Shown here one piece after another: positions 18,327 through 35,089 of a DNA stretch of 64,000 nucleotides. The notes beneath the pieces were generated by a model. The model searched no databases and was not told where the DNA came from. It worked only from the letters and a program-made list of their open reading frames with translations. The stretch is from NCBI GenBank assembly GCA_002777825.1, contig MEIR01000089.1:25562-89561 (forward strand). The letters run 5' to 3'. Position 1 is the stretch's first letter. Each line of letters begins with the position of its first letter. The stretch comes from Snodgrassella alvi. GTDB lineage: Bacteria; Pseudomonadota; Gammaproteobacteria; Burkholderiales; Neisseriaceae. The position numbers and the translations under genes are program-made.

Positions 18327-20726
<2,400 letters not shown>

Positions 20727-20745
20727 AAAATCACCTGCTCACACC

Positions 20746-20775
20746 AAAAAGGATGGCACAGCCATCCTTTTTTGT
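20746..20775 (+). terminator. gyrB intrinsic terminator (AAAAAGGATGG-CACAG-CCATCCTTTTTT)
   Basis: perfect 11-bp stem + T-run directly after gyrB stop. Confidence 0.8.
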
Positions 20776-20894
20776 TCATTATAAGAGCGCTCGCTATAAT
20801 TAAGGTATAGGTTTATCCATCAGAAAATAAAGAAAACTAAATCATATGGTGATTTTATTGTTACATTCAGGCCAAGATTTGTACGGGTACTAAA

Positions 20895-21185
20895 ATGAAA
20901 AAAATTAATATGGTTATATACCCAATAATTTATATGATAGGACTTTTAATATTATTGTGTACTTCTGATAATAAATATGAGTGGATGCAGGAGATAGATA
21001 ATACGATAGTTCAATTGCCAGAAGATAGCTCTGCAAATACGGCGATTGGAATGACTATTTTAACTTTAATATTAGTTATTATGCAGATAGTGCGTTTCAA
21101 ATTTGCCAGAAGCCATCTTGAGAAAAGCACTGTACTTATACTGGCATTGCTTGCAATCATTGTATGGGCGATTAAATTTAGTTAA
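20895..21185 (+). CDS. Hypothetical small membrane protein at the left edge of the R-M island
   Basis: 96 aa, 3 predicted TM; very AT-rich. Confidence 0.3.
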   Translation: MKKINMVIYPIIYMIGLLILLCTSDNKYEWMQEIDNTIVQLPEDSSANTAIGMTILTLILVIMQIVRFKFARSHLEKSTVLILALLAIIVWAIKFS

Positions 21186-22023
21186 TAATTAATTTTATTT
21201 TATTTAAATTTTTTATACTAAATCTTACTTTAAGATTAAGATAGATAGTTCTGCTTGAAAACTTTTTCAACAAACAGCTTACTGCACTGGCACAGATTAA
21301 TCTACTACACAGCTATTACTACTCAAAAAGTGACGCCAATTCTTATCATAAAATACCAATACTTATTTTCATAAAGCGATTATAAAAAAATTATCGGCAC
21401 TTATTAAGTAAAGTGCTATCGAACAATCGATTTTATGCATGACGGTTATCAAAATCTATGGCGCTTTAAATCATTAAATATAATAAATAAGTATCATCGT
21501 AAAATATTAGGCATTGGCATCTGTCAGATGCCCCGTAAGTAGAATAACTTCGTTATCAGAACAAGCTAGATAAATATGCTGGCTACCAGTAAACAGACAG
21601 ATAAATAATGAATCAAAACCTACCGGAATAACGGTCATCAACTGGAAAAATTATATGGATATCCACAAACTATATTCAATCCAATAGCATATCCAAACCG
21701 GTATATTGCATAATCGTCTCTATCCAACAAAACTACTGAATTGATATCTTTTTAATAATCTGGTACCGGCAAGAAAAATAAGCGAAGAATGACTAATGCT
21801 TTATAACACTGTCCGCCCATCATACATTAAATAATATTAATCCAATCAAATATAAGACATTGAAACAGATAGCGTAATTTTCTGCGGGCGTTTTAACTGA
21901 GGATGGAATACTGACCATTCAATTGCCGATTGTATGCAAGCATACTAAGCACGCCTGAATTAATCAGTTTTAATCAGGAAGCGGAAACGTTAATTCCCAT
22001 TTCCTCTTCCTGATAGTTCGCAA

Positions 22024-25000
22024 TTAAATTTCGCCACCTATGCCTTTAAACTTCTCCACTAGCTCAACAATTTTCTGGTATACCTTTTGTTTTTTGGGCA
22101 AATATTGCGGATTAAGCGGGCTCATTTTGGGCAAGACTTCGTTCAGTTCCGTGCCGTTGTCAGTAGCATATTCACGCCTTAATGAGGATGCAATATAACG
22201 TTTAGCAGCAGCTTCATTTAAATTTTCATCACCAATTAATGTCTTAACCTCAGCCTGTTGCTGCTGTTGGGCATACTGGTAAAAGGCATCAATCATACTG
22301 GCTTTATCAGCAATAGTATTTAAATCGGTATGTTGAATAAATTCAATAACCAATTCCTCTTTGGCACGATAGCCTAAACTGGAGCGGATTAAGCGCTGTG
22401 CATCTTCAACAATGACTTGTTTATTCTTATCTTGCTTGTTCTGCTCAAAAATTAACTCCAGAATATAATCCAAATTGATTTCTTGCGATTTTAATAAATC
22501 CACCTCAAAAACCACATCATCCCAATCTATGGTTAGCTGCTCCTGTTCTTCAGCGGCTTTTTGTCTATACAGCCAGTCACGAATATCATGGTAAGTTGAG
22601 CGGTAATTCTGGATCGCTCTTTCTGTTGGTATCTTAATCTTTTGCAACCGTTCAAAAGCTTCATCTGAAACATAATACTGCGCTTTAAACTGTTCGACTG
22701 CTTGTTTATCTGTAGTATCCAGCTGTTGCAATGTCTTTAAAGCGATATATTCATCATAATTTTGCAATGCATTATCGGCACGTAAATACTGGCCAAATAA
22801 TTTAATAAACGCTTTTTTATCTTTTTCAGTAATAATCTGATCCGGATGAGGAAAACATTGCTGTAGCTCAGCCACAATAGCTAAATATCCGCTATGGATT
22901 TCACCGGAAATCTCATCGGTGTAACCCTGCATATGTTCCTCATAACTTTTTTCTAATACCACATCCTGAGTATTTCTTTGGCCAAATAGTTTGATGGCGG
23001 CAATAGTAGCTGGTTCTAAATCACGAAATGCCACAATATTACCAAACGCTTTAGTGTCATCGTAGATGCGATTGGTGCGTGAAAAGGCTTGGATTAAGCC
23101 ATGAAAACGTAAGTTTTTATCGACAAATAGCGTATTGAGGGTTGGCGCATCAAAGCCGGTTAGAAACATACCCACCACGATTAATAAATCAATTTCCTGC
23201 TTTTTAACGCGCAAAGATAAATCACGGTAATAATTCTGAAATTGCCCGCTGCTAACATCATAGTTGGATCTGAACATTTGATTATAATCATCAATCGCAG
23301 AAGCTAAAAATTCTTTCGCACTTTGATTCAACGCATTGGTTTCAAAGCTTTCATCAGCAATACCGCCTGCAGGGTCTTGTTGCTCATTAGCAGCAAAGGA
23401 AAAGATAGTAGCAATTTTCAATGGTTTACTGGATGATTGTTGCAGCTTTTTTAACGACTCATAATACAGCTTTGCCGCGTCCACACTGCTCACGGCAAAC
23501 ATAGCATTGAATCCTGTACCGTTACCATTTAAGCGGTGTGTTTTCTGGTTAAATTTGTTCAGAATATATTGGCTGATTTGCTCAATTCGTTTCGGATGCA
23601 GTAATGCTTGCTTATTTTCAGCGGCACTGAGTTTCTCCAGATTTTGCTCACATTCAATCGCTTTAAAATGCGGGCGTACATCATTGTAGTCGACTTTAAA
23701 TTTAAGTACTTTTTCATCGCGAATAGCGTCGGTAATTAAATAGCTATGCAACTCACGCCCGAATACCTTGGCAGTAGTTTGCTCGCCAAACGCATTAGCG
23801 TCCAGAATTGGCGTGCCGGTGAAACCAAATTGATAGTATTTTTTAAACTTTTTCTTAATATTTTTTTGTGCTTCGCCAAATTGTGAGCGATGTGCTTCAT
23901 CAAAAATAAACACGACCTGTTTATTATAGATCGCTAAATCATCCTTAGCTTTTATCAGATTATTGAGTTTTTGAATGGTGGTGACAATAATCTTATTATC
24001 CTGTTTTTCAATATTGCGCTCCAGTCCGGCAGTACTATCGGAACCATTGACACTGTCTTTTGAGAATTTCTGATATTCTTTCATGGTTTGATAATCCAGA
24101 TCCTTACGATCCACCACAAAAAACACTTTATCAATAAATTCCAGCTCGGTGGCCAGACGCGCTGCTTTAAAGCTGGTGAGAGTTTTTCCTGAGCCGGTGG
24201 TGTGCCAGATAAAGCCGCCACTATGTAAGCTACTCCAGTTTTTGGCCTGATAAGCACTGATAATCTGCCATAAAATCCGTTCGGTTGCCGCAATCTGGTA
24301 AGGGCGCATAATCAATAAAGTATCATTGATATCCAGAACGGAGTAAGTGATTAAAACACTTAACAGCACACGGCTGGCAAAAAAAGTGGCGGTAAAATCT
24401 TTTAAGTCTTTAATTGGTTCGTTTTCAACATTCGCCCAGTTTATGGTGAAATCAAAACTGGCCTTATCCCGTTTGGTGGTATTGGCAAAATACCGGGTAT
24501 CGGTACCGTTTGAAATCACAAATAACTGTAGATATTTAAACAGGGAATTGTCCTGATTAAAACTCTCTTTACTGTAGCGATGAACTTGACCAAACGCTTC
24601 ACGAATGGCAAGGCCACGTTTTTTAAGCTCCACATGTACTAAAGGCAGGCCATTAACTAAGATGGTAACATCGTAGCGATTAGCATAATTACCGGTTTGC
24701 TGAAACTGGCGAATCACCTGTAATTTATTGTTGCTGAGGTTTTTTTTATCGAGCAGATAAATATTCTGAATATGCCCATCATCAAACACAAAATCGTAGA
24801 TATGATTATGGTGAATTTTACGGCTTTTATCGACCATCGATTCATTCGGTTTATCCAGATACTCTAATACAAATCGCTGCCATTCCTCATCGCTAAACTG
24901 CATATTATTGAGCGTTTGCAACTGCACCCGAATATTGGCCAACAATTTCTGCTGATTATTCAGCTCAGGCAGATATTCATATCCTTGACGGCATAAATCC

Positions 25001-25125
25001 TGAATCAATTCGTTTTCTAATTCATTTTCCGTTTGATACGCTGCCGCCGGCTCTTCAAGCTTGGTGTAGTTATCTAAAATAATATAGTGATCAGTTTCGG
25101 CAATCGGGGTTGTGTAATTGACCAT
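22024..25125 (-). CDS. hsdR: Type I restriction enzyme R subunit (HsdR)
   Basis: 1033 aa; SF2 helicase motifs incl. Walker A TGSGKT and DEAH box ([10 protein letters not shown]); operon with hsdM/hsdS. Confidence 0.9.
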
Positions 25126-25128
25126 CGT

Positions 25129-26271
25129 CTATTCCTCCTCCTTCTCGTAAAAATTGTAATTTTCGAGTAAATGATTCAGTAAAAAGGCAACTATCTTTTT
25201 TTCAGGTTCGGAAGGCTCGGGCACCATTTCATTGGATAAGGTTGAATGACTGGTAAAATTGATTATGCGGGTTAAATATACTTCTCTATCATCAGGCAAC
25301 AAGTCTGACCAATGCCGATAGCCTAAAAAACAGGCGGTTTTTTCATACAAGTTACGTAATAGGGTAAAATGATATTTTTCAATTTTATTTTCCTCAATCG
25401 CTTGTTGCAGCAACTGCTTTAAATACAGATGATAGGAAAAACTGTGGTTTGAATCGCCTTTTTTGCCCTCTAATTCAAAATAGCCATCTGCCAATCGTCT
25501 TAGAATATAACCGTTTTTTAATCCTAACTCATTATAAAGTACATTATAAAACAGTGGATTATGGGTAGTGATGATAAATTTAATGTCAGATTCATTGGAT
25601 TTGATTAATTGGGCAATATCTACTGCCAATTGAATCAAATGATTCTCATCTAATGAGCTTACCGGATCATCAATAAAAATATAGCGTAATTGGTCAAATT
25701 CATTAGTAGAACGCTCGCTTTTTTCCGCAATATTGCGCTCGGCAATCACCAAACTAATCAAGGTGAAAAAAATACTCCAAATTAAGTTATTTTCTTCCCC
25801 CTTGGAGATTTTAATATTAGCAATACGCTGATCATTACCCGCTGCGAGCGAAAAAGTAACAGCGGAAAAATCCTCATTGAAATGCGGCGTCAGGTTTTGC
25901 TGAGTATACGATTGGAAGTAACGAGCAATATTTTGCTCCTGCCCTTGCTCTTTCAGAATCCAGTCCGTAAATGAATTGGGTTGTATGCTTAGCTGATGCT
26001 CACCTTGCTGATATTGATCGTTATTCCAGACAAATAAATCCTCGGTAAATGCGTTATAGTAAAGAATTTTATGCCGTGTTAAGGCTCCACTGTTTTCTTT
26101 ATCCGCTTTATCCTGCGATACAATAAACTCTTTAAACGCTTGCGATAAACGTGTTTTACCGGTGCCATTAAAAGCATAAATCAATTGGGCTTTGTTTCCC
26201 TTTTTCCCTTTTTGGGTGCTTTGGGCGTTTCTATCAATCTGCTCAGCAATATTTATCAGTGTATTATTCAT
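25129..26271 (-). CDS. ABC/Rad50-like P-loop ATPase embedded in the Type I R-M operon; PrrC/RloC-like anticodon-nuclease candidate
   Basis: Walker A AFNGTGKTRLS near N-terminus, Walker B + D-loop IFIDDPVSSLDENH, H-loop TTHN; occupies the prrC position between hsdS and hsdR. Confidence 0.5.
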   Translation of the reverse strand: MNNTLINIAEQIDRNAQSTQKGKKGNKAQLIYAFNGTGKTRLSQAFKEFIVSQDKADKENSGALTRHKILYYNAFTEDLFVWNNDQYQQGEHQLSIQPNSFTDWILKEQGQEQNIARYFQSYTQQNLTPHFNEDFSAVTFSLAAGNDQRIANIKISKGEENNLIWSIFFTLISLVIAERNIAEKSERSTNEFDQLRYIFIDDPVSSLDENHLIQLAVDIAQLIKSNESDIKFIITTHNPLFYNVLYNELGLKNGYILRRLADGYFELEGKKGDSNHSFSYHLYLKQLLQQAIEENKIEKYHFTLLRNLYEKTACFLGYRHWSDLLPDDREVYLTRIINFTSHSTLSNEMVPEPSEPEKKIVAFLLNHLLENYNFYEKEEE

Positions 26272-26288
26272 ATTCTGATTGTCTTGTG

Positions 26289-27533
26289 TTATTTATCTTC
26301 TACCTTAGGAAAGTTCAATAATAAATTACGATAGTACTCGTACTGTTTTTGGCGTAATTCAATCTCACGCGGTAAACCCTCGGTGATTGAATTAGTGAGT
26401 ACATCGAATTTATCTAGGATTTTGACAATACGGTCTTGTTCCTCGAGGGAGGGGATGGGCAAGCGATATTTAAGAATAGCTTCTTTATTTCCACGTGGCA
26501 TTTTTGCGCCTTTAGAATGTTGCATATTGTATTCAAAAAAATTATCATTTGCTAAGATATGATATAAATATCTGTAGGTTAACAGATTATTTTTTAGACG
26601 AATGACTAAAACATCACCATTAGTGCCTCCAGAAGAATCTGCCTGCCAAATTTTTTTTAAGTACGGACGAATATTTCCAATTAAAATATCATTGGTGAGA
26701 TATTCTGTAAAACTTCCTTCTTTAGGCACGTGATTTGAATCAGTTTTTCCTGCTCGGTTTTGTAATAAATTATCAACACCTACATAATTTTTTTCATTAA
26801 GTTTATCAAAGCTGATTCGAGTATTTGAATAATTAGCTACTTCGCCTAAAGCCTTCCACTCAACCTCATCCTCTTTAAAGGTCAACAATTGATCACGATA
26901 ATAGTTGTATTGTTTTTTCCGTGCTGTAAGCTCTGCTGTAAGCTCTGCTGTAAGCTCTGCTGTAAGCTCTGTAAATATGTCTAAGATACGGGTAATTTCA
27001 GTCTGTATGTGTAGCGGAGGAATAGGAATTTGAATTTTTTTTAATTCACTCATTGGTAAACTAATAACTGGCGAACCAACAATTTTTTTACTATATTCAT
27101 TTACTATATATTTTGAATTAAATAAATGAGATAAGTATTTTGAAACAACTATTTCTTGAACAGGTTTTATTACATAGACTCCTTCTTTGATATTCCAATT
27201 TTTAGGTTTTTCATCAATAACAGCTGTTTTTCCTACCGTCCCTGTCCCCGAAAATAAGATGTCGCCAGCCTCTAAATTCGAGCGGTTGTTTATAAGCTCT
27301 AAAGCTTGGTTATTAATTTTATCAGTCTTATCAAGGAATACTATCTTTCCATTCTGAATTTCTCGAACAGTTATATAGAAATTCATAGCATCGGATGTAT
27401 TCAACTTAAAGTTATTTCGTGGATTTAGCCCCGTTTTCAAAGATTTTATTACTTCCCCTAATGGTTTCCACTCAACCGCTACCCCATCAAGTAATTTAGC
27501 GATACTATTGTGCATATTTAAATTGTTACTCAT
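26289..27533 (-). CDS. hsdS: Type I R-M specificity subunit (HsdS) with two target-recognition domains and a TAEL-repeat central conserved region
   Basis: 414 aa; duplicated TRD architecture; central ...ELTAELTAELTAELTA...; conserved C-terminal YEYYRNLLL-type motif. Confidence 0.85.
   Translation of the reverse strand: MSNNLNMHNSIAKLLDGVAVEWKPLGEVIKSLKTGLNPRNNFKLNTSDAMNFYITVREIQNGKIVFLDKTDKINNQALELINNRSNLEAGDILFSGTGTVGKTAVIDEKPKNWNIKEGVYVIKPVQEIVVSKYLSHLFNSKYIVNEYSKKIVGSPVISLPMSELKKIQIPIPPLHIQTEITRILDIFTELTAELTAELTAELTARKKQYNYYRDQLLTFKEDEVEWKALGEVANYSNTRISFDKLNEKNYVGVDNLLQNRAGKTDSNHVPKEGSFTEYLTNDILIGNIRPYLKKIWQADSSGGTNGDVLVIRLKNNLLTYRYLYHILANDNFFEYNMQHSKGAKMPRGNKEAILKYRLPIPSLEEQDRIVKILDKFDVLTNSITEGLPREIELRQKQYEYYRNLLLNFPKVEDK
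26923..26970 (-). repeat. Perfect 4x 12-bp tandem repeat (GCTGTAAGCTCT) encoding TAEL repeats in the HsdS central spacer
   Basis: four identical in-frame 12-mers read directly from sequence. Confidence 0.95.
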
Positions 27534-27733
27534 TTCTTGCGACTTTCCTGTTTCGCTTTGTTCGCTAATGCATTGATGGTTTCCAGATAAGATATTTCTA
27601 CCCCACTAGAAATATTTCGTGAACTATGTTGTTGAACTGTTCGGATTTTCCGAACAGTTGCTTTTTTAAAGTAAGCATCAACACGAACTTTTTGATTATT
27701 AACATGATAAATTTGAATGTGATTATTGCTCAT
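27530..27733 (-). CDS. Small hypothetical protein translationally coupled between hsdM and hsdS
   Basis: 67 aa; start overlaps hsdM stop and stop overlaps hsdS start (ATGA-type overlaps); basic C-terminus. Confidence 0.4.
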
Positions 27734-29274
27734 GCTTCAATCTCCGCCACAATTGCATCAATTTGGGCGCGTAAGCTATCAATTTTAGCTACAGTGTCTT
27801 TTAATTCAGCATTAAGCTGGGTGATATCAATAATTTCGCGGGTATCTTCGGCTTCCACATATGAGCTCACCGATAAATTATAGTCATTGTCGGCAATGGT
27901 TTGATTAGCAACCGATTTGGCAAAATATTCGACGTCTTGCTTGCTGGCAAATACTTGCACAATTTCTTCAATATGCTTATCAGTTAGGACATTATTATTG
28001 GTTTCTTTTTTAAACAGTTTGCTGGCATCAATAAATTGCGTGGTTCTGACGGTTTTGTTTTTCGCCAGCACCAAAATATTAACCGCAATCGAGGTACCAT
28101 AAAATAAGTTTGGTGCCAGTGATATCACGGTTTCAACAAAATTATTATCGATTAAATATTTACGAATTTTTTGTTCGGCGCCACCACGATAAAAAATACC
28201 CGGAAAGGTAACAATCGCCGCCCGCCCTCGCTCAGACAAGTAACTTAATGAATGCAGAATAAAGGCAAAATCGGCTTTTGATTTTGGCGCAAGTATGCCA
28301 GCGGGGGCATATCGTTCATCATTGATTAAGGTTGGGTTATCACTGCCAATCCATTTAATTGAATAAGGGGGATTGGAAACAATGGCATCAAATGGCTTTT
28401 CGTTGCCAAATTTAGGATTAAGTAGTGTATCCCCCAAGACAATTTCAAATTTATCGTAGTTGATGTTGTGTAAAAACATATTCATACGGGCAAGATTATA
28501 GGTGGTATGGTTAATTTCCTGACCATAGAATCCGTCCTCAATGATATGCTTATCAAACTGTTTTTTTGCCTGTAATAATAAAGAGCCTGAGCCTGCCGCT
28601 GGGTCATAGATTTTATTGATCTTTGTTTGATTATGTAAGGCTAATTGTGCGATTAATTTGGATACATTCGGCGGAGTGAAAAATTCTCCTCCTGATTTAC
28701 CGGCTTTAGAAGCATAATTAGAGATTAAATATTCATAAGCATCACCAAACACATCAATATGGTTATCTTCAAATTGCCCAAAATCCAGCTCGGCAATGCC
28801 ATTAAGTACGGCGGCTAGCCGTTTGTTTTTATCGGCTACGGTATTGCCTAAGCGGTTGCTGGTGGTGTCAAAATCGGCAAATAACCCTTTAATATCGCTT
28901 TCGGAAGGATAGCCGATAGCTGAACTTTCAATCGCATTAAAAATATTGGCCAAGTGGGTATTTAAGTCTTTATTGGTATTGGCCTCGGCAACGGTATGGC
29001 AGAATAATTGACTTGGATAGATAAAATAGCCTTTGGATTTAATGGCATCCTGTTTGATTTCGTCGGTGATAGCATCATCGGGAATTGATTTATAATCAAT
29101 ACTCTCGTCGCCTGCTTGCATATAATCAGCAAAGTTTTCACTAATAAAGCGATAAAATAAGGTGCCAAGTACATATTGTTTGAAATCCCAGCCATCAACC
29201 GCGCCTCTTACTTCGTCGGCAATTTTCCATATTTGGCGTTGTAATTGGTCTCGTTGCTGGATACTGATGGCCAT
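27730..29274 (-). CDS. hsdM: Type I R-M N6-adenine DNA methyltransferase subunit (HsdM)
   Basis: 514 aa; N-terminal HsdM_N domain, AdoMet motif [10 protein letters not shown] and catalytic NPPY ([11 protein letters not shown]). Confidence 0.9.
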
Positions 29275-29721
29275 GATTAAATTCCAATAAAAATCTGTGT
29301 GTTAAATATTAGGCTTATTGTGATATTTAAGCGGTAATTGTGTATTTTATCAGTATGGCTGCTTATTGGTGCATCAGGGTACAAAATAATATACGCCACA
29401 AGGCAATAATTGTATTATGGGTTCTTCGATATCAAGGTTCTAGCCTGCATTCTATGTATATTGCTTTTATAAGTGGCGATTCATTCTGGCCGCAGATTCT
29501 GTAACAGCTCAGCACATTGCATTTTGCCTGTGCCGATTGAGCATGATTGATTTTCTGGTGTTTGCTGTATTGCTCAGTCATCAATTATTTAATGTTGGTA
29601 GCAGTTGCGAAGGAGGCATCATTACAAGTACTTTATTTTCTTCCATAGCACTTTTTGCAGTAATAAGTTGCATTGAATTTGGTATTTAACCGACTAAGGC
29701 AGAGAAAATCGAAGTGGTCAT

Positions 29722-29821
29722 GGCTGCGGATAATGGCGTTGTTACCCTGATGGGTGATGCAGTAGAAGCACAGCGGGCACTGATTGAATACGATGCCTTA
29801 AATGCGCAGGTAGATGTTTGA
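29722..29821 (+). pseudogene. Orphan diverged copy of the gyrB 3' end (last ~32 codons: KIEVVMAADNGVVTLMGDAVEAQRALIEYDALNAQVDV*)
   Basis: ~75-80% identical to 20623-20726 ([34 protein letters not shown]); no upstream gyrB body. Confidence 0.75.
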
Positions 29822-29837
29822 ATCACTTTATTACATC

Positions 29838-29866
29838 AAAAAAGATGGCATAGCCATCCTTTTTCA
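29838..29866 (+). terminator. Diverged copy of gyrB terminator (AAAAAAGATGGCATAGCCATCCTTTTT)
   Basis: same hairpin as 20746-20775 with 2 substitutions; right-end direct repeat of the island. Confidence 0.7.
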
Positions 29867-29936
29867 TTGTCATGATTATATTCAGTAGCCAATCTGAGCT
29901 GGCTAAATATCTGATACAGTAAAACCAGCTAAATCA

Positions 29937-31163
29937 TCAGCCTTTAACACAGATAACCTGACGTAACTGATGTCTGATTTCTACCAGTTCCTGCTGTGCC
30001 TGCATTACGGCATCGATATCTTTGTACGCCATGGGAATTTCGTCGATTACTTCTGTATCCTTACGACACTCTACATGGGCGGTAGCCTGCATCTGATCGG
30101 CAACGGTGAATCTCCTTTTGGCTTCGGCGCGGCTCATTACCCGCCCTGCACCATGCGAACAGGAATGAAAACTCTCGGTGTTTCCTAAACCGCGCACGAT
30201 ATAACTTTTTGCGCCCATTGAGCCCGGTATAATTCCCAGTTCGCCCTCGCGTGCAGAAACGGCACCTTTACGGGTAACAAAAACATTGTGGCCAAAATGC
30301 CGCTCTTTTTGTACATAGTTATGATGACAGTTTATTGTTTGCAGATGCGTGGTAAACGGCACATCAATCACTTGGCGTAATGCAGCAATGGTGTTGTGCA
30401 TCATTACTTCACGGTTTACGCGGGCAAAATCCTGCGCCCAATGCACAGCTTCCAGATAATCACGACAATATTCGGTGCCTTCGGCAAAATACGCCAGATC
30501 GTTATTGGGCAGGTAGGTATCAATAAAATACTTTTTCATTTCTTTTTGTGCCAGTTCACTGAAATATTTACCAATGGCATGGCCAATACCACGGGAACCA
30601 CTATGCAGCATAATCCATACCTGATCGGTTTCATCCAGACAAACTTCAATAAAATGATTACCGCTGCCAAGTGTTCCCAGATGATGCAAGCTATTGGCTT
30701 TTAAAAAGCGCGGATATTTGCTGGTGAGTTTTTCAAATCCTGGCAATAGCTGCTGCCAGTACTCTTGTACAATCGGCGGCGGATTATGCCAGCTACCTTT
30801 ATCATATTTTTTATTACCCGGAGTAGAACCATGCGGTACTGCCTTTTCAATCGCCAGCCGCAATGGCATCAGGTCTTCCGGCAAATCCTGCGCGGTAAGT
30901 GATAACTGCACCGCCATCATGCCACAGCCGATATCTACGCCAACCGCAGCAGGTATAACTGCACCAGTAGTAGGAATCACGCTACCTATGGTAGAGCCTC
31001 GTCCCAGATGCACATCCGGCATTACAGCAATATGCTTAAAAATAAAGGGCAGTTCTGCGGTTTGCAGCAATTGTGTTTTGGCGATATCTTCTACTGGTAC
31101 GCCTTTAGTCCACATTTTTACCGGACGGGTTTTATCTTCTTTTAATACTTCATATTCTTGCAT
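29937..31163 (-). CDS. rtcB: RNA-splicing ligase RtcB (3'-phosphate/5'-OH RNA ligase)
   Basis: 408 aa; conserved RtcB metal/GTP-binding motifs (HxGxG region SGNHF, CHHNY, GAGR). Confidence 0.9.
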   Translation of the reverse strand: MQEYEVLKEDKTRPVKMWTKGVPVEDIAKTQLLQTAELPFIFKHIAVMPDVHLGRGSTIGSVIPTTGAVIPAAVGVDIGCGMMAVQLSLTAQDLPEDLMPLRLAIEKAVPHGSTPGNKKYDKGSWHNPPPIVQEYWQQLLPGFEKLTSKYPRFLKANSLHHLGTLGSGNHFIEVCLDETDQVWIMLHSGSRGIGHAIGKYFSELAQKEMKKYFIDTYLPNNDLAYFAEGTEYCRDYLEAVHWAQDFARVNREVMMHNTIAALRQVIDVPFTTHLQTINCHHNYVQKERHFGHNVFVTRKGAVSAREGELGIIPGSMGAKSYIVRGLGNTESFHSCSHGAGRVMSRAEAKRRFTVADQMQATAHVECRKDTEVIDEIPMAYKDIDAVMQAQQELVEIRHQLRQVICVKG

Positions 31164-31213
31164 TTTTATCTTTCATTATTTTTCTGTTTAATCAATCAGC
31201 ATAGGTTAGGCTG

Positions 31214-32794
31214 CTATTTTGCCTGAATGTTAATCAAACCATGTAATAACTGATCCAGACCGCCCACAACTGAAATTTTGTCGATGCGTTCAGCAATGCG
31301 TTCCAGTGTTTCCATTTCTTTCAAGCGTAAAGCCACTGGGTTATTTTCCATTACTCTGGCGGTATTCAGCAGGGAGCGGGTGGCGGAAGTTTCTTCGCGG
31401 CGGCGGATTACATTGGCCTGTGCTGCTTTTTCAGCCTCCACTACCTGCGCCAGTATGGTTTTCATGTCGCCCGGCAGAATAATGTCTTTCACACCTACGC
31501 TAATGGTTTCTATTCCGTAACCAGTCATATTTGCCTGCATATGCGCATTGATAACTTCATCAATCACATCCTTGTTTTCCAGCAATTCATCCAGCGTGCG
31601 GGTACCAATTGCTTCGCGTAAGGCAAATTGCAATTGCCGGTACAAGAGTTCCACAGGCTGGGCAGCTTTGGCGAAAGCAGTTAACACATCGGTATAGCAC
31701 CAGTTGGCTACTAGGTTGATACGCAGATTTACTTTGTCGCGGGTTAGTATTTCCTGCCCGGATATTTCTACCGTCTGCAAGCGTGTATCGACGATTTCAA
31801 CACTGATTTCGCGGTTAAAGCGCCAGTAAGCGGTGATGCCGGCATCCAGTAGCTGTTGTACTTGACCATTTACTTTTAATACACCAACATGATAAGCCGG
31901 TACCTGCGCAATCAGTATGCTGCTGTCTCCAATCACTTCTTTCTTACGTAATTTAGGCTGCAATAACTGCTGCACCATTTGTTCAGATAGCTGATAGCCA
32001 TCAGCCAGTTCTATGGTCTGCATGTGCTGCTTGCTGTTATTCTGCCAATATAATCGTTTTGTTCCCGGCGGCAGGATTTCCACCAGTAAATCATCTTCAA
32101 AGCGTAAACCGGCCTGATTGGCACCTACCTGCATCTGTACACAGTATTGCTGCATCTGCTCCGGTGCATTCTGCTCAATCGTGGCGGCCAGCAGGTCATC
32201 GATACGGTTATCCTGTAATTTGAATTTTCCCAGTACAAGCTTATGTTTGAATTCGCACAAGCCAATTACAGATGTGGGCGGAATAATCTGCACAAACTGG
32301 TTATCCACAAACAGAGTACCAATCTGTTCATCCACAAAATAATGCAGTTTTACATTGTCTATACCGGTAATCAGTCTGGCGGTATTTTTGGCCTGTATCA
32401 GTTCCAGTGCCACTTCATCCGGCAAACGGTAGCCCTGCTGCAAAGTCACTTTTTTAATCGATTGCGCTTTATAACTCTGCCAGTAAAGTGCTTTGGTGGC
32501 CGGCATAATGATCTCTACCAGTATGTCTTCTTCATAACGCAAAGCAATTTCATTATCCGCCACATGGACATAAAGACAGTATTTTTCTACTAGTTGCGGA
32601 TAAAAATTAAGCAGTTTTTCGGCGATGGCCGGCTCGATTTCAGTATCGGCCAGATCCACTAGATAATAGGTTATTGCTGAAAAGGGATCCCAGAAAGTAT
32701 GGCGGCCAGCGCTGACAATGGTATTTATCTCATCCCGTTTATTAACAACAGCCAGCTCACCTTTTTTTACATCGATTATGGTCAACATATTCAT
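31214..32794 (-). CDS. SPFH/band-7 (stomatin-like) domain protein with triplicated N-terminal SPFH-start-like module; co-operonic with rtcB
   Basis: C-terminal ...GIETISVGVKDIILPGDMKTILAQVVEAEKAAQANVIRRRE...NPVALRLKEMETLERIA matches stomatin/HflC core; three ~140-aa N-terminal repeats; SD GGAGA before MNMLTIID. Confidence 0.7.
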   Translation of the reverse strand: MNMLTIIDVKKGELAVVNKRDEINTIVSAGRHTFWDPFSAITYYLVDLADTEIEPAIAEKLLNFYPQLVEKYCLYVHVADNEIALRYEEDILVEIIMPATKALYWQSYKAQSIKKVTLQQGYRLPDEVALELIQAKNTARLITGIDNVKLHYFVDEQIGTLFVDNQFVQIIPPTSVIGLCEFKHKLVLGKFKLQDNRIDDLLAATIEQNAPEQMQQYCVQMQVGANQAGLRFEDDLLVEILPPGTKRLYWQNNSKQHMQTIELADGYQLSEQMVQQLLQPKLRKKEVIGDSSILIAQVPAYHVGVLKVNGQVQQLLDAGITAYWRFNREISVEIVDTRLQTVEISGQEILTRDKVNLRINLVANWCYTDVLTAFAKAAQPVELLYRQLQFALREAIGTRTLDELLENKDVIDEVINAHMQANMTGYGIETISVGVKDIILPGDMKTILAQVVEAEKAAQANVIRRREETSATRSLLNTARVMENNPVALRLKEMETLERIAERIDKISVVGGLDQLLHGLINIQAK

Positions 32795-33066
32795 TCTCCA
32801 GTCTATTGCAGCCAGCAAACAAGATGAACACAATCAAACGGATTAAGTAACGGAATAACAGGGGAAAGATTCATCATCATAACCTAATTATCGCCTGATT
32901 ATGATTAATAAATATTTTGCCTGCTATCCGGTTTTTTTACCCAAACAAAACAGCCATGGCTGAGTTTGCCCGGTTAACCGGTTTTTCCTGTGTCTAAGCT
33001 TTTACTACTGTGCTTATTCCCATTTACTGGCTGGTATTGCTTAATACGACAAGTATTACTATGTGA

Positions 33067-33139
33067 TTTTTGAAACAGGAATCGAACCTGTCACAGATTG
33101 GTTTGGTGCCAATTGCTCTATCCAGTGAGCTTTTCAAAA
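33067..33139 (-). ncRNA. tRNA-like element (cloverleaf with Trp-type CCA anticodon but A8, A33 and no encoded CCA) in leader of the rtcB operon
   Basis: minus strand: TTTTGAA-AA-GCTC-ACTGGATA-GAGC-A-ATTGG-CACCAAA-CCAAT-CTGTG-ACAGG-TTCGATT-CCTGT-TTCAAAA-A; perfect 7-bp acceptor, 5-bp anticodon and T stems; canonical T-loop. Confidence 0.55.
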
Positions 33140-33283
33140 ATACTCCGTGAAAGGGAGGTGTCTTGCATACTCAGGAATACATGTTGATAATGCAAATAGA
33201 TTAACCTTGCGGCGAATCCGGCAGCATTCGCTATGCACCTGACTGCCATATCAGACAGCATGTATTACAGACATAGGCTTTAT

Positions 33284-33299
33284 TGCAATTACTGTACCA
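33284..33299 (-). promoter_or_regulatory. Candidate sigma54 (-24/-12) promoter for the tRNA-like/SPFH/rtcB operon
   Basis: minus strand TGGTAC-AGTAA-TTGCA vs consensus TGGCAC-N5-TTGCW with exact GG-GC spacing; adjacent to divergent rtcR; AT-rich UAS region upstream. Confidence 0.35.
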
Positions 33300-33460
33300 A
33301 CAGGTAAATTTCTTTAGGAAATTTTTATAAACTATTATTTTTATTAATTAAATAATTAAATTTTAAAATTATTTGCCAGCTATTTATTGCTTAAATCCAA
33401 CATTATTTTATAAATTTATATATAATTTTATTTATATTTATAAACCAGTAGAACAATCTC

Positions 33461-35089
33461 ATGAACAGGAAAAACGTTGTATTCGGTTTTTTGGGCAATG
33501 TGCTTGACCAGCGCGGTAAAGGCAGAAAACGCTGGGGGCGCTGGCGGCCAACAGTTGATGTCTGTAATCATCCGGAATTGCCGGTATCTCGCTTTGAACT
33601 GCTTTATCACGTCAATGATAACGAGTTACTGGCTGAAATTATTCAGGATATTAAAACCATTGCCCCGGATACGCAGGTTAATCCGGTTGCAGTACATATA
33701 CATGACCCATGGGATTTTGAGGAGGTGTATACCTGTTTACTGGATTTAGCCAAAAGCTATCAATTTGATTATGAACAGGAGAATTATTATTTAAATATCA
33801 CTACCGGCACGCACGTTATGCAGATTTGCTGGTTTTTGCTGGCAGAATCACGCTTTTATCCGGCCAGACTGCTGCAATTATCGCCAACCAAAGGGGTAGC
33901 ACAGCCAGAAACGGTGTTAACTGAGCCGGCAGAGCATCAACAGCTATGCAGCCGCGGACAAATCAATATCATTGACCTGAATCTGAACCGCTACGACCAG
34001 ATTCTGACCCGCTTTCAGCAATACGCCGGCCAAGCTACTGAATTACTCAAATCCGGCATTGCCACCAGAAACCCGCATTACAATCAGCTAATTACTGAAA
34101 TAGAACAGGTAGCCAGCCGCTCGCATGCGCCTATCCTGCTATGCGGCCCTACCGGCGCCGGTAAATCTTTTCTTGCACGGCAAATTTACCAGCTTAAGCT
34201 GAATCAGCATCAGATAAGCGGCCAGTTTGTGGAAATTAACTGCGCTACTCTTACCGGTGATAATGCCATGTCCACTTTATTTGGTCATAGCAAAGGGGCT
34301 TATACGGGTGCCAGCATGGCCAGAAGCGGCCTGCTCAAACAGGCTGATAACGGCCTTTTGTTTCTGGATGAAATCGGCGAACTGGGATTAGATGAACAGG
34401 CTATCCTGCTCAAAGCCATTGAAGAAAAACATTTTTATCCGTTGGGCTCGGATAAACTGGTTTCCAGCCAGTTCCAGCTCATTGCCGGCACCAATAAAGA
34501 CTTAAAACAGGCAATTGCCTGTGGTGCATTCAGGGAAGATTTATACGCACGGATTAATTTATGGAGCTATCAACTGCCCGGGCTGGCAGAACGTAAAGAA
34601 GATATTGAACCAAATATTGATTTTGAGCTGGCACGCTATGCTAAGGAATATGGCACTATGCCACGCTTTAATCAGCAATCCAGAACCCGCTATGTAAATT
34701 TTGCCACTTCGGCTGCTGCACGATGGACGGGCAATTTCCGTGAGCTCACCGCTTCCATTACCCGCATGGCTACACTGGCCACGCAGGGTAATATCACTTT
34801 GACACAGGTTGAAGACGAAATTCAGCGCTTACAGCAACACTGGCAGCAGACAACACCCGCCGATGCACTGATTCCGGTTGAAATTGATGAATTCGACCGC
34901 TATCAGCTAGAAAAGGTGATTGAAGTATGCCGCAAAAGCCGAACTTTATCCGAGGCCGGCCGCTATCTGTTTGCGGTATCACGGGCACAGAAACAGCGTG
35001 CCAATGATGCCGACAGGCTGAAAAAATATCTGGCCAAGTTTGATTTAAGCTGGGAGCAGATAAAAGATAGTGCCTGTAGCAGCGATTAA
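33461..35089 (+). CDS. rtcR: Sigma54-dependent transcriptional activator RtcR (N-terminal CARF domain, AAA+ sigma54-interaction domain, C-terminal HTH)
   Basis: N-terminus MNRKNVVFGFLGNVLD matches RtcR CARF start; Walker A GPTGAGKS, GAFTGA-like GAFREDLYARINLW motif. Confidence 0.9.
   Translation: MNRKNVVFGFLGNVLDQRGKGRKRWGRWRPTVDVCNHPELPVSRFELLYHVNDNELLAEIIQDIKTIAPDTQVNPVAVHIHDPWDFEEVYTCLLDLAKSYQFDYEQENYYLNITTGTHVMQICWFLLAESRFYPARLLQLSPTKGVAQPETVLTEPAEHQQLCSRGQINIIDLNLNRYDQILTRFQQYAGQATELLKSGIATRNPHYNQLITEIEQVASRSHAPILLCGPTGAGKSFLARQIYQLKLNQHQISGQFVEINCATLTGDNAMSTLFGHSKGAYTGASMARSGLLKQADNGLLFLDEIGELGLDEQAILLKAIEEKHFYPLGSDKLVSSQFQLIAGTNKDLKQAIACGAFREDLYARINLWSYQLPGLAERKEDIEPNIDFELARYAKEYGTMPRFNQQSRTRYVNFATSAAARWTGNFRELTASITRMATLATQGNITLTQVEDEIQRLQQHWQQTTPADALIPVEIDEFDRYQLEKVIEVCRKSRTLSEAGRYLFAVSRAQKQRANDADRLKKYLAKFDLSWEQIKDSACSSD

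Follow-up and report, generated by a model that had tools for sequence, protein, structure and literature searches.

In Snodgrassella, the interval from gyrB to rtcB is a defence hotspot with several alternative cargos, a point that a preliminary description of this DNA had missed. In the window, by which we mean the whole stretch of 64,000 nucleotides analysed here, the source organism is a bumble-bee-type Snodgrassella and the interval holds a Type I restriction-modification (R-M) island bounded by two diverged copies of the gyrB end and its terminator. With a probability of roughly 60%, this arrangement goes back to an ancient insertion of R-M genes with long target duplication, which turned the site into a core defence hotspot where homologous recombination in the flanks has since swapped one cargo for another.

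Results

The left core flank of the island is gyrB (18336-20726, + strand; 796 aa; Pfam DNA_gyraseB, Toprim, GyrB_insert and DNA_gyraseB_C), which is syntenic with dnaA-dnaN across all related loci. The right flank is the convergent RNA ligase gene rtcB (29937-31163, - strand; Pfam RtcB, E 1.9e-127). Within the window, MAFFT and BLAST aligned 20612-20775 with 29707-29866 over about 160 bp at approximately 83% identity. Copy 1 (20612-20775, + strand) comprises the last 37 codons of gyrB and the stop codon followed by a spacer of 20 nt and by terminator hairpin 1 (20746-20772), and copy 2 (29707-29866, + strand) comprises an orphan gyrB tail with a 33-codon ORF remnant (29720-29821), the spacer and terminator hairpin 2 (29838-29864). 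A repeat search resolved two arms of 116 nt at 83% and 44 nt at 84% identity with a 3-nt indel between them. BLAST E values of 1e-37 to 1e-39 and a Smith-Waterman score of 173, compared with 19 ± 2 for shuffled sequences (maximum 29), bear out the recurrence of the gyrB tail and its hairpin that the preliminary description had claimed; both tail peptides quoted there were reproduced on translation, and only the start of the repeat had to be moved, about 10 nt to the left of 20623. The left edge is sharp, with 72 dissimilar nucleotides upstream of each copy (local score 6 against a null of 6.3), and the right edge is the T-run of the hairpin or lies at most about 12 nt beyond it. From hairpin 2 to the rtcB stop codon runs a native spacer (29867-29936) common to relatives, namely strains with an Olokun system at this site (L083, L084) as well as L096, L112 and L107.

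It is hardly conceivable that an assembly duplication or chimera made the repeat. Such an error has the generic risk posed by repeats in its favour, but collapsed or duplicated reads are impossible because the copies are 17% different. The structure is moreover found in at least six independent assemblies, two of which are closed chromosomes; besides the window, it is present in the JGI contig L001, in GCA_002777575.1 (L002) and GCA_002777705.1 (L096), and in the closed genomes CP118686.1 (L112) and CP160326.2 (L107).

The 8.9 kb between the copies (20777-29709) have a GC content of 36.5% compared with 44.6% in the rest of the window, which agrees with the AT-rich, atypical composition noted at first sight. 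Pfam matched the gene list drawn up then (hsdM, a small ORF, hsdS, an ATPase, hsdR and a small hydrophobic ORF) and returned no integrase or transposase domain in the island. The two non-coding gaps contain neither long frames nor decayed integrase frames, their stop-to-stop frames reaching at most 47 and 81 aa. Next to hairpin 1 lies a lineage-specific segment (20777-21298, + strand) with a hydrophobic two-TM ORF of 96 aa (20895-21185, + strand) that weakly matches Pfam DUF2645 (E 0.0027). L001 and L002 have an intact copy of this ORF and L112 a 78% identical one; the segment is missing in L096 and L102, where homology restarts at window position 21299. An AT-rich non-coding spacer (21186-22023; GC 31.9%; frames of at most 47 aa) extends from the small ORF to the end of hsdR, and its counterpart in clade X is unrelated sequence.

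The remaining genes lie on the - strand. The product of hsdR (22024-25125; 1033 aa) matches Pfam HSDR_N, SWI2_SNF2, T1R_D3-like and, at an EcoR124-type C-terminus, EcoR124_C (PF12008, E 5.5e-64), along with PADLOC REase_I (E = 0), and shares 99% identity with a protein of S. alvi. The neighbouring gene (25129-26271; 380 aa), listed in the preliminary description as an ATPase, matches Pfam AAA_13 and the PADLOC profile of PrrC (E 2.1e-141, profile positions 20-351 of 372), and its translation contains a Walker A motif (GTGKT), FIDDP and a C-terminal R-x3-E...H pattern. These features identify it as a putative anticodon nuclease of the PrrC family, which had been overlooked. They make the cargo a Type IC prr locus of the order hsdM-orf67-hsdS-prrC-hsdR, accompanied by the DUF2645-like gene. 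HsdS (26289-27533; 414 aa) is matched twice by Pfam Methylase_S and has a central (TAEL)4 repeat encoded by a 12-nt tandem repeat (26922-26981; translated ELTA/TAEL x4), while its target-recognition domains show no alignment between lineages. The open reading frame of 67 aa between hsdM and hsdS (27530-27733) has no match in Pfam or NCBIfam and occurs only in the window lineage (L001, L002), being missing in L096, L112 and L107. HsdM (27730-29274; 514 aa) matches Pfam N6_Mtase (E 4e-119) and HsdM_N and PADLOC MTase_I. The region 5' of hsdM (29275-29706), which ends at the inner junction with copy 2, aligns across lineages W, C and R up to that junction and more weakly in X; it has no similarity to gyrB, nor is there any to the left of the repeat boundary.

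The cargo has a known counterpart. The prr locus of E. coli CT196 consists of the EcoprrI Type IC R-M system and the anticodon nuclease PrrC, and a TAEL repeat in HsdS is a marker of Type IC systems. The island shares with that locus the order hsdM-hsdS-prrC-hsdR, with a PrrC match between hsdS and hsdR, EcoR124_C in HsdR and TAEL in HsdS. It differs in its additional 67-aa ORF, in being known here from sequence and in having its nearest relatives in other bee-gut bacteria (Gilliamella and Apibacter; HsdR 81-84% identical).

The gyrB|rtcB site occurs in four states in Snodgrassella, namely empty, with prr/R-M, with Olokun (OloA E 5e-82, OloB E 1e-185) and with a degraded Septu block containing RadC and HATPase; the same pair of core genes thus encloses variable defence cargo or none. 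Empty alleles, which the preliminary description had suggested looking for in relatives, were found in L093, L097, L098, L100 and L104-106, where 85 bp, with a single terminator shared by both genes, lie between the stop codons of gyrB and rtcB, and the island is an insertion relative to them; within the window's own close lineage, we found no empty allele. In a neighbour-joining tree of DnaA, DnaN and GyrB, 206 of 300 bootstraps place clade X at the base. Because this rooting is weak, the empty state of honey-bee S. alvi may be secondary, through deletion via the repeats, rather than ancestral. The absence of rtcA, which had been expected next to the right-hand repeat, does not seem to be due to the island, since all Snodgrassella loci examined, empty ones included, have rtcR / SPFH-rtcB without rtcA. 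One RtcB protein, P0021 of Snodgrassella sp. ESL0253, was discarded as a locus relative as its locus is unrelated. Pattern searches anchored at the 3' end of rtcB gave no match among metagenome contigs, a collection that seems to contain no bee-gut data, and no exact match to the window's GyrB was found.

Several comparisons bear on how cargo is exchanged. For lineages W and R, hsdR-prrC is 98-99% identical, the orphan-tail segment 83% and gyrB 88-92%, and W and X are 90% identical in hsdR compared with 83% in the core. L099 and L101 carry different cargo (the far side of the L101 cargo being read through an RtcB cluster member) and are 0.5% apart in gyrB, yet 5 of the 13 differences fall within the last 112 nt (p = 6e-4). 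As the flanks are conserved, the exchange of cargo is best ascribed to homologous recombination. An alternative would be a site-specific tyrosine-integrase island whose attP mimicked the gyrB 3' end, leaving attL and attR before the integrase was lost. The low GC content of the cargo and a 21-nt run of identity within the repeat, at 29796-29816, would suit it, and the 3' ends of conserved genes are common targets of islands that supply a replacement gene end. We consider it very improbable, since neither an integrase nor a remnant of one was found in the four states of the site and five lineages, and no tyrosine or serine recombinase lies at an end of the window's island or of the alternative cargos. 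In addition, 160 bp is long for an att site and the other cargos are bounded differently: at the Olokun cargo the hairpin alone is duplicated, and the Septu block extends to the rtcB stop codon and has its own terminator. The latter boundary also led us to reject the hairpin as a universal recombination site, since the Septu-type cargo, with a terminator other than this hairpin, stops right at the stop codon of rtcB; there are no further copies of the hairpin within the 64-kb window.

Over 114 positions, the orphan tail has 20 differences from gyrB, which are spread 7/6/7 over the codon positions (pN/pS 0.58). Thirteen of 37 residues are changed, invariant ones included (VEPRR to VEAQR), so that an orphan-specific peptide, VEAQRALIEYD..., results. 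The functional gyrB tails of five clades, on the other hand, encode an identical peptide with 0 non-synonymous differences, all their differences being in third positions. The preliminary description had taken the orphan for the gene end of a heterologous donor or of the recipient. On that reading, homology-facilitated illegitimate recombination (HFIR) after transformation would have brought a donor segment of heterologous gyrB 3' end, terminator and island into gyrB, the two copies would represent a donor and a recipient allele, and the divergence between them would reflect how far donor and recipient are apart. The topology, with one sharp inner junction and no homology past it, and the lack of an integrase fit this scenario, as does the later cargo swap that carried a slightly different gyrB tail (L099 and L101); most such insertions, moreover, are in naturally competent species according to Furuta et al. 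(PMC2853133). However, a heterologous gene end should differ mainly at synonymous sites, whereas the copies differ evenly over the codon positions and invariant residues have been lost, a pattern that no pair of functional gyrB tails shows. The orphan is also nearest to the gyrB of its own lineage (17.5% compared with 22-27% to other clades) and carries own-clade states at every clade-distinguishing site. No other gyrB matched it better among the matches listed in a GyrB scan of genome contigs, which were from distant Betaproteobacteria and Gammaproteobacteria, included no Snodgrassella and served as an outgroup. Finally, the window contains no over-represented DUS-like motif, and the orphan substitutions differ between lineages that have the same junction, so most of the divergence postdates the event. 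Taken together, we regard HFIR from a heterologous donor as quite unlikely.

Nor does a recent event in a single genome agree with the data, as the inner junction, where ...TTTGGTATTTAACCGACTAAGGCAGAGAA meets AATCGAAG, is identical in the four lineages W, C, R and X, and one of the lineages that share it is at a dS of about 1.2. Even the orphan copy of X can be recognized, as it is collinear with a score of 33 compared with a null of 20 ± 2.5 and has an in-frame stop. The substitution pattern marks the orphan tail as what appears to be an old, decaying duplicate of the gyrB end and terminator. Its 33-codon ORF, open in W, C and R, was also considered as a peptide gene and rejected because of the in-frame stop in X and a pN/pS of 0.6-0.8. 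What had been proposed about the acquisition of the island by recombination can therefore be retained in part: it is a duplication-bounded, integrase-free insertion of foreign composition whose cargo was apparently moved by core-flank recombination, but neither the heterologous gene end nor the recency holds.

Several observations count against our explanation, among them the weak rooting and the failure to find an empty allele in the window's close lineage. Despite the one shared junction, orphan decay is uneven and amounts to 11 of 114 positions (about 10%) in L096, about 18% in the window and about 40%, with an in-frame stop, in L107. The substitutions of the window orphan are rich in transversions (9 transitions to 11 transversions compared with 10:0 for gyrB of W and R), which a simple neutral clock fails to explain, and the orphan of lineage R resembles W/O-type gyrB more closely than the gyrB of its own lineage. 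The uneven decay and the allele of the R-lineage orphan would be accommodated by RecA-dependent cycling of the Campbell type, in which the island excises as a circle between the tails and re-integrates, be it in its original strain or elsewhere, by a single crossover at the gyrB tail, so that the repeat is regenerated and the orphan partly refreshed. The differences between L099 and L101 that are confined to the gyrB tail, and empty sites in a clade that is possibly nested among occupied ones, point in the same direction, and a 'virus-like life cycle' of R-M units flanked by direct repeats has been put forward (PMC2853133). Still, we judge such cycling to be unlikely as the explanation: neither a circular form nor a hybrid repeat was observed, the window orphan has no 5'-to-3' divergence gradient, RecA recombination would today be very inefficient at 83% identity over 160 bp, and the first insertion is left unexplained.

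The hairpins have fared differently from the coding tail. Hairpin 1 has a 12-bp stem in the terminator scan and folds at -17 kcal/mol on both strands, whereas hairpin 2 is more stable on the rtcB-sense strand (-15.6 kcal/mol) than on the opposite one (-9.4). Hairpin 2 is conserved, W showing a G.U pair on the rtcB-sense strand and X double changes from G:C to A:T, which is consistent with its retention as the predicted terminator of rtcB and as the sole part of the orphan copy that is kept.

Discussion

We propose that in the original, empty form of the site gyrB and rtcB would have shared one bidirectional terminator hairpin. Early on, a foreign AT-rich Type IC R-M/PrrC cassette would have inserted just 3' of this hairpin with a target duplication of about 160 bp, which would have taken in the final 37 codons of gyrB together with spacer and hairpin and would have given each core gene a separate copy of the terminator. 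From then on, the copy attached to gyrB would have been under strict purifying selection, while the coding tail on the rtcB side would have been a dead fragment, decaying more or less neutrally and in each lineage on its own, with its hairpin kept as the terminator of rtcB. Host homologous recombination in the conserved flanks would have swapped the cargo between strains with no involvement of an integrase, giving rise to the contents now seen: prr/R-M with differing HsdS specificities, Olokun, the degraded Septu block or none at all. The cargo would by analogy act in the cell as a standard prr locus. Type I R-M systems cut DNA that lacks methylation, and PrrC is kept latent by the R-M complex until a phage disables restriction, whereupon tRNA-Lys is cleaved.

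A more far-reaching idea is that the duplicated gyrB tail and terminator form a working, recombinase-free 'landing pad', from which cassettes leave as circles to enter naive genomes again through crossover by the host's RecA in the gyrB tail. The uneven orphan decay, the foreign-allele orphan of lineage R and the tail-confined differences in near-identical genomes are possible footprints of repeated cycles of this kind. We find this idea improbable; to our knowledge, the 'virus-like life cycle' of R-M systems proposed by Kobayashi's group has never been demonstrated.

The founding event that we favour, an insertion with long target duplication, has been described for R-M systems before (Nobusato et al. 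2000; Furuta, Abe & Kobayashi 2010, PMC2853133). All features by which Furuta et al. recognize this class are present here: R and M homologues inside the insert (hsdR, hsdM and hsdS by Pfam and PADLOC), an insert below 20 kb without mobility genes (8.9 kb), and a repeat above 30 bp that is single-copy in an empty genome (about 160 bp; L093 and L097, the empty genomes being from another clade with about 16% gyrB divergence). As in the published cases, the R-M unit is below 20 kb, lacks a mobility gene and is flanked by direct repeats far longer than 30 bp that overlap the 3' end of a resident gene, and their H. influenzae example is also a Type I M-S-R unit, broken there by a small ORF that resembles a regulator and by an ATP-binding protein (PMC2853133). 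Unlike those cases, the repeats are old and about 83% identical, compared with mostly 93-100% (PMC2853133), and the empty allele comes from a different clade instead of the same species. Furthermore, the duplicated unit includes a bidirectional terminator with a selectively kept copy, and the site is now a multi-cargo hotspot.

The present state of the site resembles the core defence hotspots (cDHS) of Pseudomonas aeruginosa (Johnson et al. 2023, PMC10250203), which are proposed to spread laterally via homologous flanks, and comparable hotspots of E. coli or Vibrio: a fixed site between core genes takes up variable low-GC defence cargo without a consistent mobile-element signature. The slot is much smaller (0-9 kb, one system at once), however, and its flanks are gyrB and rtcB instead of a tRNA or tmRNA gene, with the founding scar, the duplicated gene end, still traceable. 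Likewise, the hsd 'immigration control region' of E. coli and Salmonella is a fixed locus with alternative Type I systems or non-R-M genes and recombination in the flanks (PMC2853133), but it has other flanking genes and other cargos than Olokun and Septu, and the duplicated target is explicit only here.

The gyrB slot is thus a clear case of known phenomena and no new kind of element. For annotation, it means that the orphan fragment is not a gene and that the 'ATPase' should be renamed as PrrC. The scar separates the origin of the slot, a long target duplication, from the later turnover of cargo by flank recombination, which is rarely possible in integrase-free hotspots. The gyrB-rtcB interval is also a handy marker for strain typing and a potential neutral insertion site for engineering bee-gut Snodgrassella. 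In conclusion, the model gut symbiont Snodgrassella has, beside its replication-origin genes, a compact defence hotspot with four alternative contents and a readable founding scar.

The direct repeat and its cargo

The diverged direct repeat described at both ends of the roughly 9-kb Type I restriction-modification (R-M) island between gyrB and rtcB was recovered by repeat search, BLAST and Smith-Waterman alignment alike. Copy 1 (20612-20775) comprises the last 37 gyrB codons, the TAA stop, a 20-nt spacer and a hairpin with a 12-bp stem and flanking A- and T-runs (hairpin 1), and the same stretch recurs as copy 2 (29707-29866), made up of an orphan gyrB tail and hairpin 2. The match consists of two segments, of 116 nt (83%) and 44 nt (84%), which a 3-nt indel separates, with BLAST E values of about 1e-37 to 1e-39 and a Smith-Waterman score of 173 versus 19 +/- 2 for shuffles. 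The left edge is sharp, as likeness in the 72 nt upstream of both copies is no greater than that of shuffled sequence. Repeat and island structure occur in at least six independent assemblies, two closed chromosomes among them, and therefore do not represent an assembly artefact. The AT-rich composition of the island (36.5% GC between the copies versus 44.6% elsewhere in the window) and its gene content were confirmed as well: Pfam identified gyrB, hsdR, an AAA_13 ATPase, hsdS and hsdM, followed to the right by rtcB and an SPFH gene. In agreement with the preliminary description, neither integrase nor transposase domains were found in the window by Pfam. The non-coding gaps of the island contain no long open frames.

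The homologues of RtcB and HsdR place the host in Snodgrassella, a genus of bee-gut Neisseriaceae. Sequence almost identical to the window is present in a JGI contig and in GCA_002777575.1. Between hsdS and hsdR lies a 380-aa prrC (25129-26271; PADLOC PrrC, E 2e-141), the translation of which contains GTGKT, FIDDP and a C-terminal R-x3-E...H pattern. HsdR has an EcoR124-type C-terminal domain according to Pfam, and a tandem repeat of a 12-nt unit (26922-26981) encodes (TAEL)4 in the central region of HsdS, where all strains checked have four L-T-A/V-E-like units, some of them diverged. The latter two features we take to be hallmarks of Type IC systems. Given these three features, the island is a classical prr locus, hsdM-(orf67)-hsdS-prrC-hsdR, with an additional small DUF2645-like membrane ORF. 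The 67-aa orf67 (27530-27733) lies between hsdM and hsdS, overlaps both neighbours with its start and stop, has no family match and is confined to the window lineage, with 84% identity in GCA_002777575.1. The 522-bp segment with the DUF2645-like ORF (20777-21298) is restricted to the window and S. communis lineages and stands in place of about 12 nt after hairpin 1 in L096 (GCA_002777705.1) and L102, a second, nested indel at the hairpin 1 boundary. Outside Snodgrassella, the nearest HsdR proteins belong to other bee-gut bacteria, Gilliamella and Apibacter (81-84%), in line with the low GC content of the island. An hsdM-hsdS-prrC-hsdR operon of another bee-gut organism (L094:6154-13102, JGI 3300076110), with an 84% identical HsdR, is surrounded by efp and radical-SAM genes, a neighbourhood wholly unlike gyrB|rtcB. 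Between genera, it would thus be the prr cassette that travels and not the site.

Four states of the gyrB|rtcB slot

The gyrB|rtcB interval was gathered from many strains by exact-protein lookups around RtcB, HsdR and ribosomal protein L34. Distances between gyrB genes define five clades, of which W (the window lineage), O and R (L096 type) are 7-10% apart, whereas the W/O/R group, E and X (L107 type) differ from each other by about 16-17% (dS 1.0-1.2). In the empty state (L093, L097, L098, L100 and L104-106), the gyrB and rtcB stops are separated by 85 bp with one common hairpin, and RtcB is labelled S. alvi (honey-bee type). The prr/R-M state is found in the window, L001 (the JGI contig), L002 (GCA_002777575.1), L112 (CP118686.1, S. 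communis, lineage C), L096, L102, L099, L103 and L107 (CP160326.2). Other loci carry Olokun (OloA and OloB; L083-L092) or, in L101 and L118, a degraded Septu block together with genes for RadC and a HATPase_c_3 protein. Integrases are absent from all four states.

In all occupied states, the cargo starts no more than a few bases beyond the hairpin 1 T-run. Olokun (L083:11426-14858, with relatives L084-L092, a sister lineage) is bounded by two copies of the ~27-bp terminator hairpin; the second copy is the hairpin alone, and no gyrB-tail copy is present in these loci. Just behind hairpin 1, ~11 nt (TTGCYGGTA) are similar to the first bases of the R-M cargo of lineages R and X, which hints that Olokun replaced an earlier occupant of the slot. 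The Septu block (L118:11222-18497) extends to the rtcB stop codon and brings a terminator of its own that differs from the hairpin. Since Olokun duplicates only the hairpin and the Septu block ends with another terminator, the hairpin is a frequent but not an obligatory cargo boundary. With PtuA split into 71 and 334 aa and a called PtuB ORF of 101 aa that matches just the C-terminal half of PtuB profiles, the Septu system is probably inactive.

Origin and decay of the orphan gyrB tail

The preliminary description proposed that a donor had supplied a heterologous gyrB 3' end. The functional gyrB tails of the five clades encode the same 37 residues and differ in third positions only, with no non-synonymous change among up to 16 differences. 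Of 114 positions in the orphan tail of the window (29707-29821), 20 deviate from gyrB; they are distributed 7/6/7 over the codon positions and cause 13 amino-acid replacements, which affect the invariant VEPRR-F motif as well (pN/pS 0.58). For this tail, the nearest gyrB allele is the own-clade one (17.5%, versus 21.9% for R or X and 27.2% for E), and the tail has the own-clade state at all clade-diagnostic synonymous sites. Because the differences are spread over the codon positions, invariant residues are lost and the own-clade gyrB is nearest, the orphan tail is a defunct duplicate of the resident gyrB 3' end and not the functional end of a foreign gyrB.

The inner junction ...GGCAGAGAA|AATCGAAG, or recognisable derivatives of it, is common to lineages W, C, R and X, while the substitutions in the orphan tail differ by lineage (11/114 in R, 20-21/114 in W and C, about 40% plus an in-frame stop in X), which argues for one founding event followed by independent decay in each lineage. 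Starting at the ATG at 29720, the 33-codon orphan frame has remained open in W, C and R, whereas it is interrupted in X. Decay is uneven among lineages: the W/C copy is transversion-rich (transitions to transversions 9:11), compared with 10:1 for the R orphan and 10:0 for the functional tails of W versus R. The R orphan is closer to the W/O gyrB allele than to its own gyrB. Gene conversion, excision and re-integration via the repeats or import of a gyrB 3' end could be among the contributors. For the founding duplication itself, we infer the molecular mechanism.

Hairpin 2 is conserved while the orphan coding tail decays. In W, the only change it has undergone still allows a G.U pair in the rtcB-sense RNA (-15.6 kcal/mol versus -9.4 for the other strand), and in X two stem pairs changed from G:C to A:T on both sides. 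This is the behaviour expected if copy 2 provides the predicted rtcB terminator: the shared bidirectional terminator would have been cut off from rtcB, and the copy 2 hairpin would serve in its place. The absence of the rtcA gene that was expected beside rtcB has no bearing on the island, since rtcR / SPFH-rtcB without rtcA occurs in all Snodgrassella loci including the empty ones, with an SPFH/Band_7 gene in the stead of rtcA in the rtc operon (29937-35089). The nearest RtcB homologues outside Snodgrassella are from Gilliamella (78%). In clade X (L107:441-5576), RtcB has 406 aa and its gene is only about 71-76% identical in DNA sequence, compared with 83% for gyrB. RtcB looks laterally mobile. 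PrrC yields tRNA halves with 2',3'-cyclic-phosphate and 5'-OH ends, the substrate class that RtcB seals, and only ~3.7 kb separate prrC from the RNA-repair operon rtcR / SPFH-rtcB, so that RtcB might in principle reverse PrrC damage. However, this adjacency is probably incidental because Olokun or Septu fill the same slot in other strains.

Exchange of cargo

Between the window and lineage R, identity is 98-99% in hsdR-prrC, 97% in hsdM and 88-92% in gyrB but only 83% in the orphan-tail segment; relative to clade X it is about 90% in hsdR-prrC versus 83% in the core. The target-recognition domains of hsdS cannot be aligned between strains, and specificities therefore differ. The closed genomes L099 (prr/R-M) and L101 (Septu block) carry different cargo at a gyrB divergence of 0.5%, and 5 of their 13 gyrB differences fall within the last 112 nt (Fisher p = 6e-4), a cluster that marks a recombination end point. 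Mosaic identity profiles, unalignable hsdS domains and the L099/L101 tails together indicate repeated homologous exchange that used the conserved flanking regions as well as the R-M genes and took place after the slot had formed. DNA uptake sequences (DUS) occur roughly once per kb in Neisseria; by contrast, no DUS-like over-represented 10-12-mer was detected in window 1-64000, where even the most frequent 11-mer, CAATACCGCCA, is present just 5 times. A three-protein rooting placed X basal in 206 of 300 replicates, a weak result, and honey-bee S. alvi could either have kept an ancestral empty site or have regained it through deletion between the repeats.

Relation to known systems

Insertion of R-M systems with long target duplication has been described for Types I-IV, chiefly from competent bacteria, among them Neisseria and Haemophilus; the Haemophilus case is again a Type I unit that has an ATP-binding protein embedded in it (PMC2853133). 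The island matches every criterion of this class: it combines R and M genes in less than 20 kb, its repeat exceeds 30 bp and is single-copy in the empty genome, and mobility genes are lacking. Core defence hotspots are, like this slot, multi-cargo and integrase-free, and homology of the flanks has been put forward as their route of transfer (PMC10250203). The site therefore belongs to kinds that are already known, although our literature search found no paper on this Snodgrassella gyrB|rtcB site. Of the acquisition model put forward initially, insertion with a duplicated gene end and recombination-driven mobility without an integrase are retained, whereas recent acquisition and a heterologous gyrB end are not. 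In conclusion, the gyrB|rtcB slot is an ordinary yet well-resolved example.
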